Assembly (NCBI GenBank): GCA_963818965.1
Contig: CAWFUG010000009.1
Span: 352,001-416,000, forward strand
Direction of reading: 5' to 3'
Source: an uncultured Verrucomicrobiae bacterium
Lineage (GTDB): Bacteria > Chlamydiota > Chlamydiia > Chlamydiales > Rhabdochlamydiaceae
Length of the DNA: 64,000 nucleotides
Part shown: positions 35,482 to 41,585 of the stretch, one piece after another
Position numbering within the stretch: the first letter of the stretch is position 1
Layout: each line of letters starts with the position of its first letter
Program-made: the position numbers and the translations under genes
Notes under the pieces: model-generated
What the model was told of the DNA's origin: nothing
The model's input: only the letters and a program-made list of their open reading frames with translations
Database searches by the model: none

Positions 35482-36060
35482 TTATTTTAATCTTTGATTC
35501 TTTTGAATTAAGAAGAGGGAAGGGGAGGCGTTGCGGTTGATCCACCGGTGGTGGCAAACGCTATAATGGGCGGGATCGAGCCCTTTTAAGTACTGAAGCA
35601 GAGCGACTTCCTCTTGCGCTCCTTCAGTGTGGCCGGGGTAAGAGACGATGGAAATCGCCCCACCGGGGAGCAGAAGAGAGAGTCCCTTTTCGATACTGGT
35701 GAGAGTACTTGAGGGAAGCGTTTTGATCTCTTTATCACTGCCGGGGAGATACCCTAAGTTATAGACGATCAAGCGGATCGGTTTTTCTAAGGCAAGTGGA
35801 GGGAAGGTTGCATGGGAAGAACAAAAAAAATGGACATTTTTTTTCTCCTGGCAGGTCACTTTGGCTTTTTCGATCGCTTGCGCCTGAATATCTAGGGCGA
35901 TGACACCCCCCTTTTCGTCGACTAAATCTGCCAAAACGAGGGTGTCTTTTCCATTGCCGCAGGTCGCATCGATGACCCAATCGCCCCCTTGTAAGAGGTT
36001 TTTCCAATAGGCGTGGGCCAAGTCTAGAGGTGTCTGAAAGAGAAAAAATTGCCGATCCAT
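35482..36060 (-). CDS. YtqB/MnmM-like SAM-dependent RNA methyltransferase
   Basis: IDATCGNGKDT, YNLGYLPGSDK, YPGHTEG. Confidence 0.85.
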   Translation of the reverse strand: MDRQFFLFQTPLDLAHAYWKNLLQGGDWVIDATCGNGKDTLVLADLVDEKGGVIALDIQAQAIEKAKVTCQEKKNVHFFCSSHATFPPLALEKPIRLIVYNLGYLPGSDKEIKTLPSSTLTSIEKGLSLLLPGGAISIVSYPGHTEGAQEEVALLQYLKGLDPAHYSVCHHRWINRNASPSLFLIQKNQRLK

Positions 36061-36137
36061 CTCTTGGAGAATAGCATTTTTATGAATTTTTCTTGGCTAT
36101 AATTCCGTTCTTCATTTATCCTTCTCTTTTTTCGTAC

Positions 36138-36211
36138 GGGGTATTAGCTCAGTTGGTTAGAGCGCCACGTTGACATCGTGGAGGTCAGCTGTTCAAGTCA
36201 GCTATATCCCA
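36138..36211 (+). tRNA. tRNA-Val(GAC)
   Basis: Acceptor GGGGTAT/ATATCCC-A; anticodon arm ccacg-ttGACat-cgtgg; GTTCAAG T-loop. Confidence 0.95.
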
Positions 36212-37726
36212 ATGATTTTGTTAAGACAAACCGCCGCCCAATATTTGGGAATGGCTGTGCGGGAGTTGTTTCCTAAGGTGCATCTCGTAGGAGGGCAGGG
36301 GACATCCCAATTCTTCTACTACGACTTTTTATTCCCTTTTCCGTTTCAGAAAGAGATGCTCCCTCTCATCGAAGAGCGGATGCATGCGATTCTCCGCGAG
36401 AAAGGAGAGGTGCGACGCATCGAAATGGTGCCGTCGAATGCAGCAATGCTATTTGAGAGTCGAGAACAACCTCTCATCGCCGAACGCTTGAGAAATGTCT
36501 CTACTGCGACTGTGCCCCTCTGTCAAATCGGCGAGTCGATCGATTATTGCCCCGAGCCTTTTTCTCTAAACAATACTTTTAAGTTTTTCAAGCTCATTGA
36601 AGCATTGGAAATAGGTGGGATCACCCGGATTGTCGGAGTTCTCGAAGAGAATAAAGAACTCTTAAAACAAAAAGTAAAGAGCGCAGATCTCGCTGCACAT
36701 AATCACTTAACGCTCATCGAATCTTTATTCTTCCCGCTCGAAGAGGATTCCCGTTGGGTTTGGCTCCCTAAAGCGAAGAAGATCCGCGATCGTCTGTGTG
36801 CCTTTTGGAAAGAAGCGCACGTCGAGCAAAACTTTAGTTTACTCTCCTCTTCCTCCACGACAGAGGAGGAGATGACGCGCGCCCATGTGGCGTTTTTGCG
36901 CTCTAAAAATTTTTCCAAAACGGCGGAATTGGGGACCCTCTCTTTTTGGGAAGAGGCTGATGTGCGTGAGGGGCTCTTCTCGGCAAATCGCTGCTTTACC
37001 GACCGTGGCTATCTCTTCTGTCCTAAGGAAAAACTTTTAGAAGAGGCGATTTCGTCCTTGCAATTCATTCTCAAAATCCCTAAAATCCTGTGTTTTGAGT
37101 TCGAGATCCTTTTGTCCATTTCGAGCGCTGGGAATCCCAAGGGAGCTGTACAAAGAGAAGCAGTAGATGTCTTTAAGCAGGCGTTGGGAAAGCTCGGGTT
37201 GAGTTTTACCACGTGCAAGGAGTATCATCGCGATCTGAGTGCGAGGATTGATGTTCTCCTTTTTGATTCGCTAGGAAGAAAATGGCGTGGCCCCTTTCTA
37301 GGTATCTCAAGATCAGATCTGAAGATGGGTCAAGGGAAACACCTCTTGATTCGCTCGGCATTTGGTTCGATGGAACGACTCATCGGTCTGCTCCTCGAAA
37401 ATGCCGGTGGAGAGATCCCTTTTTGGCTCGCTCCAGAACAGGTGAGGATTCTCCTAGTTAGCGAGGGTGCTACCAGTTGGGCGGAAGAAGTGCATCGGGA
37501 ATTGCGAACTCGAAATATTCGAGCGACAGTGGAAAGAGAGACAGATGCTCTTAAAGTGAGAGTGTCCCGCGCGACCCGAGAGAAAGTTCCCTTCATCGTA
37601 TTGATTGGGGAGCAGGAAATCAGAGAGCGCTCTTTGACCGTTCGAGAGGGAACAGGGATTGACCAGAAGGGGCTATCCCAGAAGAGCCTATCACTGGATG
37701 GCTTTTGTGAGATGATCCAAAGTTGA
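36212..37726 (+). CDS. Degenerate threonyl-tRNA synthetase paralog (probable pseudo-enzyme)
   Basis: ThrRS layout (FYYDF, GSMERL, PFWLAPEQV, KVPFIVLIGEQE) upstream of infC, but the Zn ligands and motif 2 Arg are replaced. Confidence 0.8.
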   Translation: MILLRQTAAQYLGMAVRELFPKVHLVGGQGTSQFFYYDFLFPFPFQKEMLPLIEERMHAILREKGEVRRIEMVPSNAAMLFESREQPLIAERLRNVSTATVPLCQIGESIDYCPEPFSLNNTFKFFKLIEALEIGGITRIVGVLEENKELLKQKVKSADLAAHNHLTLIESLFFPLEEDSRWVWLPKAKKIRDRLCAFWKEAHVEQNFSLLSSSSTTEEEMTRAHVAFLRSKNFSKTAELGTLSFWEEADVREGLFSANRCFTDRGYLFCPKEKLLEEAISSLQFILKIPKILCFEFEILLSISSAGNPKGAVQREAVDVFKQALGKLGLSFTTCKEYHRDLSARIDVLLFDSLGRKWRGPFLGISRSDLKMGQGKHLLIRSAFGSMERLIGLLLENAGGEIPFWLAPEQVRILLVSEGATSWAEEVHRELRTRNIRATVERETDALKVRVSRATREKVPFIVLIGEQEIRERSLTVREGTGIDQKGLSQKSLSLDGFCEMIQS

Positions 37727-37732
37727 AACGGA

Positions 37733-38254
37733 GTGGAAACGCTGAACTTGAAAATCAACCGAGAAATTCGAGCGCAGAAATTGCGCGTGATTGGTGAAGA
37801 TGGCAGTCAGCTCGGCATATTGACGTTAGCTGAAGCGCTAACGAAAGCAGAGCAATCAGGACTTGATTTAGTCGAGATCGCACCTAGTGCTGACCCACCA
37901 GTTTGTAAGATTATCGATTACGGAAAGTACCGTTATCAGCTCACGAAGAAAGAAAGGGAGCAAAAGAAGACGCAGCACCAGGTTAAAGTCAAAGAGATCA
38001 AGATCAAGCCGAATACGGATGATCACGATCTCACAGTAAAGACTAAACATGCCCGTGAGTTTCTCGTTAAGGGAAACAAAGTGCGGGTCACCTGTATGTT
38101 TCGAGGGCGGGAGATGATGCATCCGGAAATCGGCATGCGGGCAGTCCAGCGGATGTGTGAAGGGATGACGGATATCGCTACCCCTGAAGCGCCTCCAAAA
38201 ATGTTTGGACGCAATCTCTCCGTGATTCTAGCCCCAGGAGCAAAAAAGAAGTAA
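37733..38254 (+). CDS. infC: Translation initiation factor IF-3
   Basis: INREIRA, DLVEIAP, PPVCKIIDYGK, FRGRE; non-ATG start. Confidence 0.97.
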   Translation: METLNLKINREIRAQKLRVIGEDGSQLGILTLAEALTKAEQSGLDLVEIAPSADPPVCKIIDYGKYRYQLTKKEREQKKTQHQVKVKEIKIKPNTDDHDLTVKTKHAREFLVKGNKVRVTCMFRGREMMHPEIGMRAVQRMCEGMTDIATPEAPPKMFGRNLSVILAPGAKKK

Positions 38255-38313
38255 GAATCTATTCCAAAAATCGACCAAAGATTTTACCGAGATAGGTTCA
38301 GAGGAGAGTTATT

Positions 38314-38523
38314 GTGGCAAAGACGAAAGTTAAGAGAAAGACACATAAGGCAGTTTCTGCGCGATTTAAAGTGACAGGAACGGGCAAGTTAAAACGACGT
38401 CATCCAGGACGTCGGCATATTTTGACGAAAAAAGCATCTAAGCGCAAACGCCGTTTGAAGAAAGATGCTCTCGTCGACAAAGGACAGTTGAAGATGTATT
38501 CCCGTCTCATGGGAGTTGCATAA
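38314..38523 (+). CDS. rpmI: 50S ribosomal protein L35
   Basis: KTHKAVSARFKVTGTGK, RHILTKK. Confidence 0.95.
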   Translation: MAKTKVKRKTHKAVSARFKVTGTGKLKRRHPGRRHILTKKASKRKRRLKKDALVDKGQLKMYSRLMGVA

Positions 38524-38554: not shown

Positions 38555-38911
38555 ATGGGTAGAGTCACCAACGCTGTGGCCGCCAATCGCTCTCGCAAGC
38601 GTCTTTTCAAACGGGCAAAGGGTTTTGTCGGTGATCGTAAGAATCACCTCCGCCTAACGAAAGATGCTGTGATGTCGGCATTGGCATTCAATTACTGCCA
38701 CCGCAAACAGAAAAAAAGAGATTTTCGCCGCCTCTGGATCGTCCGGATCGGTGTCGGTGCGAAAATCAATGGGATGTCTTATAGTAAGTTCATCTCAGGA
38801 CTGCAAAAGGCAGGTTGCGCCTTAAATCGCAAAGTCTTGTCCGATATGGCGATCCGCGACCCTAGCAGCTTTGCTGCTGTCGCCGGGACTGCAAGACAAG
38901 CACTCGCTTAA
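38555..38911 (+). CDS. rplT: 50S ribosomal protein L20
   Basis: KRAKGF, KKRDFRRLWIVRI, LNRKVLSDMA. Confidence 0.97.
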   Translation: MGRVTNAVAANRSRKRLFKRAKGFVGDRKNHLRLTKDAVMSALAFNYCHRKQKKRDFRRLWIVRIGVGAKINGMSYSKFISGLQKAGCALNRKVLSDMAIRDPSSFAAVAGTARQALA

Positions 38912-38920
38912 AACAGCATC

Positions 38921-38952
38921 GCACCTTTTTCCGTAAGGGGAAGGGTGCTTTT
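38921..38952 (+). terminator. Intrinsic terminator between rplT and pheS
   Basis: gcacctttttcc-gtaa-ggggaagggtgc-ttttt. Confidence 0.7.
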
Positions 38953-38972
38953 TCTTCGATATAGGTATAGTC

Positions 38973-40157: not shown

Positions 40158-41585
40158 TCAATTACGCATCGCAGAGTACATGGCATCTTTAATTCGCTGC
40201 TTTGTCGCATCATCGGTAATCCATGTAGCAGCTAGGTCATTAATGTCATGGCCTAAGTCTCTCGATTGACTCGTTGCATAACCGATCAATTCTTCTAGGA
40301 TATCTATCCATTCTGGCAGATCTCCTTTAGAACCCAGTTCGCAACAGCGTTTGACAATTTCAAGGACCTCAGCTTCCCTAAAGTAGAAGATTAATTTGTT
40401 ACAGAGGAATAGGATCGCATCTTTTCTCCTTGGGATTTCAGAAACTGTTTCGGCACAGAGTATCGCTGTTTGAGCTACGATACCGTAATCTCGAGAAAGT
40501 TGGGCAGTATCGTAGTCATCATTGAAAATCTGATCAATGATGCAACTCCCCATTCCCTCGAGGGCGTTTGCCTTTTCTCGACATTCTTTAGAGACTGTTT
40601 TAGAGCATAGTTTGATAATTTCAAAACCGGCTTCAATACAGCCGTTGTTGATTAACCTAAGGCTAATGCGCCAGAGAGCCATCGGTTTTTCAGGACAAGT
40701 TTCTGGGATTATTTCAGAGTACAGTGTCGCTAATTGAACGGCTTGCTCAGCATTCATTTCCGACGCTACTACGCAAGCTCTTTCCTGGAGCCTCTTTGCT
40801 ATATAAGGTTCTTCCTCATCTGTTTGAAAATAAGGAATAATATTTGAGTCTAAGATCGCATGGAACGCTTCGAGATCATCTGCAAGTGCGAATGTTGTTC
40901 TTATGGCGGGGATACATTTTATAATGAAATTTAAGAATTTGCCGACATTGGTGTCTGTACGGAATTCTGAAAACTGCAAAAAGAGGTCGAACTCTTCTGG
41001 GCTTAACTCTTTGAGGAATTCCACAATCTTCACTTGTTTGTCGTGCTCGAGTGTCATCATTTCAGGTAAGGTTGTCGCATCCGTTTTGCCAGGAGCAATA
41101 GCATCGAGGGTCTCAGAGATAAATTTTTGGCGCTCAAGAGAGATCTTTGGTTGAGAGAGGAGATGCTTTTTTAGAAGTTCGAGAGTTTCCCAAAGCGATG
41201 AGAAGCGTTCCCTAACTTTAGAATGTTCCTCATCGAGCAATAATCGACCTATAGAGACAGTCCATTCCTGGCAGACCTGTGAAGTTCTTCCTCTGCCCTG
41301 TTGTCCCAGAAAGCCGAGAACCCTTAAAAAGATCTCAGTGGGAAGCTGATCGATGGGGAATACAGTCGTGAAGAGGGCTTTTTGGATAGAGGTAACATTA
41401 CTGATGGCCTTCTTGAATAATTCCACGACCTGCTGGGATCGAAAGGTCTCGAGGTGTTGGTTAGAGCCTTTGTCGGCACATCCCAATGCCCCTTGTGAAG
41501 GTTGATCTAAATGGGAAAGAATGTGGCCAAATATTTTTTGGTATTCTGAATAATTGGGATTTGAACTGAAAAGAGAGAGTGACAT
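40158..41585 (-). CDS. F-box effector candidate
   Basis: IDQLPTEIFLRVLGFL...SQVCQEW, plus a degenerate upstream F-box. Confidence 0.75.
   Translation of the reverse strand: MSLSLFSSNPNYSEYQKIFGHILSHLDQPSQGALGCADKGSNQHLETFRSQQVVELFKKAISNVTSIQKALFTTVFPIDQLPTEIFLRVLGFLGQQGRGRTSQVCQEWTVSIGRLLLDEEHSKVRERFSSLWETLELLKKHLLSQPKISLERQKFISETLDAIAPGKTDATTLPEMMTLEHDKQVKIVEFLKELSPEEFDLFLQFSEFRTDTNVGKFLNFIIKCIPAIRTTFALADDLEAFHAILDSNIIPYFQTDEEEPYIAKRLQERACVVASEMNAEQAVQLATLYSEIIPETCPEKPMALWRISLRLINNGCIEAGFEIIKLCSKTVSKECREKANALEGMGSCIIDQIFNDDYDTAQLSRDYGIVAQTAILCAETVSEIPRRKDAILFLCNKLIFYFREAEVLEIVKRCCELGSKGDLPEWIDILEELIGYATSQSRDLGHDINDLAATWITDDATKQRIKDAMYSAMRN

Follow-up and report, generated by a model that had tools for sequence, protein, structure and literature searches.

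A chlamydial descendant of threonyl-tRNA synthetase at the thrS-infC locus that has lost its catalytic residues and is retained under purifying selection

Between a tRNA-Val gene and infC, in a 64,000-nt stretch of chlamydial DNA (here called the window; positions 352,001-416,000 of contig CAWFUG010000009.1, GCA_963818965.1), lies a gene of 504 codons that descends from threonyl-tRNA synthetase (ThrRS). The residues of its product support the conclusion that it cannot be a working ThrRS. The best explanation overall, and one that we consider probable, is that the gene encodes a non-catalytic ThrRS descendant that still sits at the ancestral thrS locus and is kept by selection for a non-enzymatic role. 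We refer to it as the paralog. The assembly that contains the window is 2.24 Mb long, in 12 contigs, and 88% complete.

That the gene is intact and yet encodes a catalytically dead ThrRS paralog was the claim of a first-pass annotation, which read the letters and a list of open reading frames alone. The frame is indeed open: it translates into 504 residues and ends at a single TGA (37724-37726), with no internal stops and no frameshifts. ARAGORN and the translation also agree with the annotation that the first ATG (36212) is the next base after the tRNA-Val discriminator, a spacer of 0. A TTG start at 36170, offered by the automatic list (518 aa), falls inside the tRNA-Val gene and was taken as a frame artefact. 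As for activity, zinc- and threonine-binding residues, the ATP-binding arginine of motif 2, and the editing histidines are missing, and the protein scores 154 bits on TIGR00418, the NCBIfam equivalog model for thrS, below the cut-off of 383.65; both results bear out the claim of a dead enzyme. Motif columns were taken from HMMER and MAFFT alignments to canonical ThrRS, and the canonical residues carry their E. coli numbers. In these columns, the editing HxxxH reads QTAAQ (residues 6-10) and CRGPH reads CPEPF (113-117). A shorter EEEMTRAH (218-225) takes the place of the KPMNCPGC/H loop, QDDAH reads TDRGY (263-267), and HRA reads IRS (380-382), such that zinc ligands C334, H385, and H511 fall on T222, Y267, and I380. 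All five readings match those made earlier by eye. Motif 2 had been read as WEE, which is one residue off, as both HMMER and MAFFT give F245-W246-E247 for the R-x-E column; the loss of the arginine (R363) stands, and the glutamate is kept. Moreover, K465, Q479, T482, and Q484 are replaced, whereas D264, D352, and W358 are kept.

What survives in the paralog is its fold, motif 3, and its anticodon-binding domain (ABD), the latter two as the annotation had noted. Motif 3 reads GSMER with R389 in place, and the ABD gives the only Pfam match (HGTP_anticodon, E 8.8e-13); the Pfam models tRNA-synt_2b, tRNA_SAD, and TGS found no match in the protein, and no NCBIfam model was passed. Thus, the score, the zinc site, the motif-2 arginine, and the editing site of the N2 domain each place the protein outside working ThrRS, and the overall fold places it within the ThrRS lineage. 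Across 79 canonical ThrRS, 99 positions are at least 95% invariant, and the paralog keeps 39 of them: 7 of 20 in N2, 23 of 69 in the core, and 9 of 10 in the ABD, although the unbiased retention in the ABD is three of four because 6 of its 10 columns fall within the peptide pattern that fetched 70 of the 79 sequences. Among the ABD residues are E469 and R478 of the GE-x-E and V-R elements, which we take to be the tRNA-Thr anticodon contacts of structure 1qf6.

Charging of tRNA-Thr does not fall to the paralog. A PF00587 scan of the assembly returned four class II synthetase genes, none of them at the window frame. One of the four, on contig C3 (locus L001, 562-2481), is the second thrS that the first-pass annotation expected; its 639-aa product carries TGS, tRNA_SAD, tRNA-synt_2b, and HGTP_anticodon domains, with all catalytic and editing motifs intact and a TIGR00418 score of 661.2 bits. 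On the strength of those motifs, the C3 gene is shown to supply aminoacylation, and the possibility that the window gene is the sole, active thrS was ruled out. We suggest that the paralog would perform neither aminoacylation nor editing and that its role would be non-enzymatic.

The residue losses are shared by a large family. A word-indexed search returned 123 relatives, from a 95% identical protein to dozens of proteins of 370-600 aa from chlamydial metagenome bins. We built a profile alignment (A1) of 51 members, including the window protein, which is 95% to 28% identical to the other 50; 14 of its columns are invariant and 48 are nearly invariant. When A1 was searched against 1.84 billion representatives, the best 150 matches all had E values of 6.1e-128 or lower and lengths of 425-683 aa, and the family comprises at least 150 clusters at 50% identity. 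In an alignment of 151 representative proteins with 15 canonical enzymes (fast MAFFT setting), equivalents of C334 and H511 were absent from 150, and the exception, P0251 (642 aa), is a canonical ThrRS. Of the 151, 149 have either deleted the KPMNC loop or changed it beyond recognition, and 130 keep the motif-3 arginine. We also examined 27 copies in their loci, namely the 21 best paralog loci from 40 relatives' genomes, the window's own, and five named chlamydial loci; here, R363 is kept in one copy, D383 and H511 in none, and the motif-3 arginine in 25. Distant members of the family are longer and still register as PF00587, yet their ligands are gone too, and the inactivation is therefore old. 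Record names vary: they range from 'hypothetical protein' through 'His/Gly/Thr/Pro-type tRNA ligase C-terminal domain-containing protein' to an automatic 'threonyl-tRNA synthetase', and the corresponding ESM Atlas cluster, a 'hypothetical protein' with 127 members, is mostly from Chlamydiota.

Might the family instead have become an enzyme of another kind, with new chemistry in a remodelled pocket that binds a different ligand or works without zinc? The common retention of the motif-3 arginine, the presence of D264, D352, and W358 in the window protein, and a family-specific W-x-G-P motif in place of WQCGT could be read as signs of such remodelling. The near-universal loss of the motif-2 arginine and of the KPMNC loop and the replacement of K465, Q479, T482, and Q484 make it very improbable, as class II-type ATP binding looks impossible and the pocket residues differ between members with no shared new consensus.

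The paralog is predicted to retain the ThrRS architecture and perhaps its dimer. An AlphaFold2 model from the A1 alignment had a predicted local distance difference test score (pLDDT) of 91.4 and a predicted template modelling score (pTM) of 0.84. Its top Foldseek matches were the full-length ThrRS structures 6vu9, 1qf6, and 1nyq, with E values of 7e-43 to 2e-36 at about 20% identity. Two copies of residues 160-504 were predicted to pair with a score of 0.67, versus 0.42 for the best control, a pass that may reflect memory of, or likeness to, the ThrRS dimers that have already been solved. In the benchmark for this test, 20 of 30 proteins with structures solved as pairs came up to that mark, as did 1 of 23 solved as single chains. 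Three dimer runs shared at least 97% of their contacts, with a partner pLDDT of at least 80. The predicted interface residues (174-262) correspond to the class II interface, and the family-invariant W184, P186, and G188 lie within it. The paralog may thus still form a dimer through the class II interface.

A conserved interface could also mean that the paralog is a regulatory or scaffolding subunit, either of the working ThrRS, as a pseudo-heterodimer, or of an unrelated enzyme, by analogy with HisZ. The region of the class II interface is indeed kept and predicted to pair, the three invariant residues fall inside it, and N2 and the core are the parts retained universally. The dimer model, however, covers the homodimer alone and offers nothing for a hetero-partner; the conserved neighbours are only tRNA-Val and infC-rpmI-rplT, which suggest no partner enzyme; and lineages without the paralog keep their canonical thrS unchanged. 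We consider a subunit role quite improbable, and a non-catalytic protein with a role of its own remains the explanation that we favour.

Whether the paralog is simply decaying was addressed with codon models. Pairwise dN/dS among relatives was dropped, as all pairs are 20-46% identical, and a tree-based model (GY+F3X4+G4, fixed trees) was used in its place. Omega was 0.223 for the whole paralog (22 taxa, 369 codons), 0.091 for infC (21 taxa, 168 codons), and 0.146 for canonical thrS (9 taxa, 643 codons), values that are rough, as proteins 20-46% identical imply saturation of synonymous sites. By domain, omega was 0.207 for N2 (22 taxa, 160 codons), 0.222 for the core (22 taxa, 205 codons), and 0.261 for the ABD (15 ABD-bearing taxa, 97 codons); it reached 0.348 for N2 plus core in the seven taxa that lack the ABD (372 codons). 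The log-likelihood of the whole paralog was -26503.2, versus -27288.0 with omega fixed at 1, and omega = 1 was likewise rejected for each domain and for the ABD-less set (twice the log-likelihood difference, 240 to 809). Frames are open across N2 and the core in all 22 loci (the window's own and the 21 from relatives' genomes), at 391-621 codons; where three genomes (G003, G029, and G000) had been flagged for stops inside the gene, the match had run past the natural stop at its end, and the flags do not mark internal breaks. The first-pass annotation had proposed dN/dS across chlamydial orthologs as a check, with neutral decay as the outcome that would speak against its reading, and an omega of about 0.22 with omega = 1 rejected answers that check in its favour. 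Judged by these codon models, purifying selection acts on each domain of the paralog and maintains the gene, and neutral decay is excluded.

The paralog occupies a constant position. Of those 22 loci, 21 have tRNA-Val(GAC) immediately before the paralog, the remaining one being cut by a contig end, and all 22 have infC immediately after it, often overlapping the paralog stop. Both neighbours are present in the five named chlamydial loci as well, so the order tRNA-Val, paralog, infC holds in 26 of 27. The same setting occurs around functional genes elsewhere. A pattern drawn from the family alignment also fits canonical ThrRS, and 75 of the 80 loci fetched with it were canonical genes of other phyla, which served as outgroup; among 72 non-chlamydial loci, seven, from Eisenbacteria, Auribacterota, Kiritimatiellota, Thermodesulfobacteriota, and Krumholzibacteria, had canonical thrS between tRNA-Val(GAC) and infC. 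Because working thrS genes in other phyla share the arrangement, the window gene is at the ancestral thrS position, and its abutting tRNA was inherited. We conclude that abutment on tRNA-Val is inherited synteny and not peculiar to the dead copy. We note that a locus recorded as 'Verrucomicrobia bacterium isolate BOG_genome_mining.30' (L035) has a paralog 44% identical to the window protein and beside it in the tree, a tRNA-Val(GAC), and an infC 77% identical to that of the window; the phylum label of the record looks wrong.

In 17 of 21 loci, 0-26 nt separate the tRNA from the paralog start, and no Shine-Dalgarno sequence is evident. The paralog mRNA would be made by 3' processing of tRNA-Val and would be leaderless or nearly so. 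IF3 disfavours leaderless initiation, and this layout brings up the reading that the gene is a translated spacer: the protein would have no job, and ribosomes would read from the leaderless 5' end through to the infC start in a coupling device for IF3, possibly one sensitive to IF3 itself. We regard this as improbable. In most of the 22 loci the paralog runs right up to infC or into it, the start lies close to the tRNA, and the family evolves fast, has lost the ABD repeatedly, and is absent altogether from some lineages, all of which a spacer would explain, but a spacer would not hold omega near 0.2 in all three domains or keep 14 invariant residues across 51 members. Nor would a ThrRS fold with a pLDDT of 91 survive divergence to 20-46% identity. 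Moreover, a spacer of 1.5 kb should shrink in reduced genomes, and infC manages without the paralog in two genomes (G065 and G028, described below). A selected protein with a non-enzymatic role is the reading that we carry forward.

Where the paralog came from was addressed with trees. A tree of 106 rows groups the 27 paralogs in one clan (SH-aLRT 100), with a stem of 1.24, and the nine chlamydial canonical ThrRS in another (100), which falls within sequences of Bacillota, Spirochaetota, and some Planctomycetota and is not sister to the paralog clan. Approximately unbiased (AU) tests were run on a subset of 57 rows, with 14 of the 27 paralogs, 6 of the 9 chlamydial canonical enzymes, and 37 of the 70 other rows. 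A constraint that joins the paralogs to the chlamydial canonical enzymes was 25.9 log-likelihood units worse (p-AU 0.175), and duplication within the Chlamydiae is thus not rejected. Joining them to 11 ThrRS of Verrucomicrobiota, Kiritimatiellota, and Lentisphaerota that lack TGS gave the highest likelihood of any tree found, 13.7 units above that of the free search (p-AU 0.767), for a grouping that was named after the first tree had been seen and that involves long branches.

These 11 enzymes (L039, L053, L054, L060, L062, L064, L069, L097, L103, L107, and L113) have the absence of TGS in common with the paralog. Measured as open frames and not from start codons, they are 576-630 aa long in 10 cases and 712 aa in L097. 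All lie before infC except L097, for which no infC was found, and two of them (L062 and L113) follow tRNA-Val(GAC), as the paralog does. Unlike the paralog family, they keep the canonical invariant positions, and they are presumably the sole thrS of their genomes. One record bears the label Akkermansia muciniphila. Because the tree preference, the absence of TGS on both sides, and the common gene position point the same way, we favour the view that the dead copy would be the native, vertically inherited thrS, whose job was taken over by the working copy; we hold this view as a leaning, short of a demonstrated result. The paralog would descend from the TGS-less ThrRS type of those relatives and, early in the history of the Chlamydiae, would have ceded its enzymatic role to the other thrS.

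What the paralog does is suggested, tentatively, by the domain that reads tRNA in ThrRS. The first-pass annotation had proposed a repurposed protein that binds tRNA or mRNA. One possibility, which we put forward with reserve, is that the retained ABD binds tRNA-Thr or a tRNA-like RNA element and that the paralog, made alongside IF3, L35, and L20, acts as a regulator or chaperone. In favour, 20 of 27 copies keep the ABD, which is itself constrained (omega 0.26). We searched for anticodon-arm mimics of tRNA-Thr (a 5-bp stem with a 7-nt loop, YU-NGU-RN; 0.00-0.04 expected in each region) and found none in nine canonical thrS leaders and none in 36100-38400, a negative that holds for this strict pattern. 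Furthermore, because seven of the 27 copies have no ABD, RNA binding through this domain cannot be a function common to all members. A fuller scenario, rather unlikely in all its parts, is that the displaced, TGS-less thrS of the Chlamydiae became a dimeric RNA-binding pseudoenzyme after charging passed to a foreign-looking, full-length thrS, and that a leaderless mRNA processed from tRNA, together with the overlap with infC, ties synthesis of IF3, L35, and L20 to the status of tRNA-Thr or the level of IF3. If true, a dead synthetase would have yielded a new means of controlling translation, one that persisted as the order diversified.

The saturation of synonymous sites, the limits of the two AU comparisons, and the empty search for mimics weigh against the explanation that we favour, as do several signs of relaxed constraint and loss. 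The end branches of the paralogs carry 0.5-4.2 changes per site, versus a median of 0.37 over all rows, as the family evolves several times faster than the canonical enzyme, and omega is highest in the seven ABD-less taxa. The seven ABD-less copies, among them the same-genus relative of the window, sit in at least five separate places of the tree. Evidence of expression comes down to one RNA run (X8, peat metagenome) with a single 188-nt contig identical to 37279-37466, for which DNA carry-over is possible. Moreover, some lineages dispense with the gene. In an order-wide sample of 151 genomes, 150 of which were scored, profile matches (which are not copy numbers, and for which 150 of 268 rows were listed) numbered two or more in 108 genomes and one in 42. 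All scored members of families f32 (7 of 7) and f35 (5 of 5) had a single match; genomes of f35 measure about 1.0-1.2 Mb, and four of the five consist of two contigs. In G065 and G028, tRNA-Val lies 139 and 244 nt from infC, and the paralog between them is absent.

Three further genomes (G138, G037, and G055) gave no tRNA in fetched loci that reached 1.5 kb upstream of infC, and in G138 other open reading frames occupy that stretch. We conclude that the paralog gene is useful but dispensable. Where it is present, N2 and the core, with the dimer region and motif 3, are the parts kept universally. One copy (L019, genome G006) is unlike the seven ABD-less ones, as it has kept the ABD and part of its core is gone, at about residues 300-340 of the window protein.

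The genes that surround the paralog complete a familiar operon (Table 1). The tRNA-Val gene encodes no CCA, and the sequence runs ...tatatccca|ATG into the paralog. A scan for sigma-70-like sites found none just upstream of the tRNA gene, with a pattern that is uninformative for chlamydial promoters. The infC frame opens 6 nt past the paralog stop. Its start is ambiguous, as the GTG at 37733 abuts a GGAG without spacing and a CTG (37742) and a TTG (37749) lie further in; infC of E. coli uses an AUU start, which a non-standard start here would recall. Two short basic frames follow that, by their translations, read like rpmI and rplT and would complete the classical thrS-infC-rpmI-rplT arrangement. 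The terminator-like hairpin behind them is likely the end of the transcription unit, and beyond it lies a pheS-like frame, named from its translation only.

Table 1. Features of the tRNA-Val-paralog-infC region, in window coordinates
Feature	Position	Strand	Basis
tRNA-Val (anticodon GAC)	36138-36211	+	ARAGORN and sequence
ThrRS-derived, TGS-less, catalytically degenerate paralog ('pseudo-ThrRS')	36212-37726	+	Translation, Pfam, NCBIfam, AlphaFold2, Foldseek
N2 (editing-type) domain, residues 1-160	36212-36691	+	Alignments
Degenerate class II catalytic core, residues 161-402	36692-37417	+	Alignments
Anticodon-binding domain, residues 403-504	37418-37723	+	Pfam HGTP_anticodon, residues 410-502
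infC (IF3)	37733-38254	+	Pfam IF3_N and IF3_C
Short basic frame, rpmI-like (L35)	38314-38523	+	Translation read, name by eye only
Short basic frame, rplT-like (L20)	38555-38911	+	Translation read, name by eye only
Terminator-like hairpin and T-run after rplT	38921-38948	+	Consensus scan, pattern match only

Outside the operon, a divergent gene upstream of tRNA-Val (35482-36060, minus strand) encodes a putative rRNA methylase of 192 aa (Pfam PF06962, E 6.7e-39). Two large frames on the minus strand flank the operon; 32397-34403 matches the Pfam F-box model (E 1.2e-09), and 40158-41585 has an F-box-like match (E 3.1e-05) that falls just under the cut-off. Eukaryote-type F-box domains beside the operon fit an amoeba-associated chlamydia, and an expansion of F-box proteins in the Parachlamydiaceae is reportedly the subject of a paper.

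Sequencing runs were searched with the window as well; they shared no more than 0.10 of sampled words, and the resulting contigs were scattered and mostly 151 nt. Three peat metagenome runs gave 151-nt contigs that are identical to the window at a depth of 2-3 (X1, 37760-38037; X2, 38686-38962; X4, 35679-35829 and 35906-36056), and the organism or a near-identical strain seems to be present in those peat runs at low abundance. Within the paralog frame, four differences were seen, all in X2 contigs at a depth of about 2, three at third codon positions (36700, 36730, and 36745) and one at a second position (36879). They were too few and too error-prone to use, and pN/pS based on polymorphism was set aside.

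Proteins that derive from synthetases and do not charge tRNA are known as a kind, and few such families are well documented in bacteria. The paralog shares the N2, core, and ABD fold, the GSxER of motif 3, and the position before infC with canonical ThrRS (1qf6 of E. coli, 1nyq of S. aureus, and 6vu9 of S. maltophilia) and differs from them in that TGS is missing, C334 and H511 are lost, H385 is a tyrosine, and the motif-2 arginine and the editing HxxxH and CxxxH are gone. HisZ, a HisRS paralog that regulates HisG, has a known partner and a known effector. Proteins of the HisZ type resemble the paralog as class II derivatives that have lost charging and are kept for another role, a likeness of kind and not of family, and HisZ has HisG, whereas the gene neighbourhood of the paralog presents no partner candidate. 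The ThrRS of E. coli represses translation of its own mRNA through anticodon-arm mimics. As a ThrRS body with an ABD that serves as an RNA-binding regulator within a thrS-infC operon, the E. coli autorepressor is a model for what a dead ThrRS might do; unlike it, the chlamydial locus yielded no operator-like hairpin, and 7 of 27 members lack the reading domain.

Second ThrRS genes are also known in other lineages, and the cyanobacterial T1/T2 pair and eukaryotic ThrRS-L are the only duplicated ThrRS listed in the parts of a 2022 review that we consulted (PMC9437257). T2 and ThrRS-L are, like the paralog, ThrRS-derived genes that stand beside a housekeeping one. They differ in that, by the same portions of the review, they still charge tRNA-Thr (PMC9437257), whereas the chlamydial protein is without the residues needed. 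Those portions mention no ThrRS-derived bacterial family that does not charge (PMC9437257), and neither such a family nor a dead ThrRS paralog in Chlamydiae was found in open-licence papers and preprints, a search that would miss an account in a subscription journal.

The paralog family would be a new family of pseudoenzymes that is large, old, under selection, and housed within one of the most conserved operons of translation. It is also a hazard of annotation, as the label 'threonyl-tRNA synthetase' on its members can mislead metabolic reconstructions. Why a chlamydia carries two ThrRS-derived genes may be a matter of gene replacement, in which the native synthetase may have been replaced and then reused instead of deleted. 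Finally, the absence of the paralog from several lineages with small genomes is a natural experiment that may help to show what purpose it serves where it is retained.

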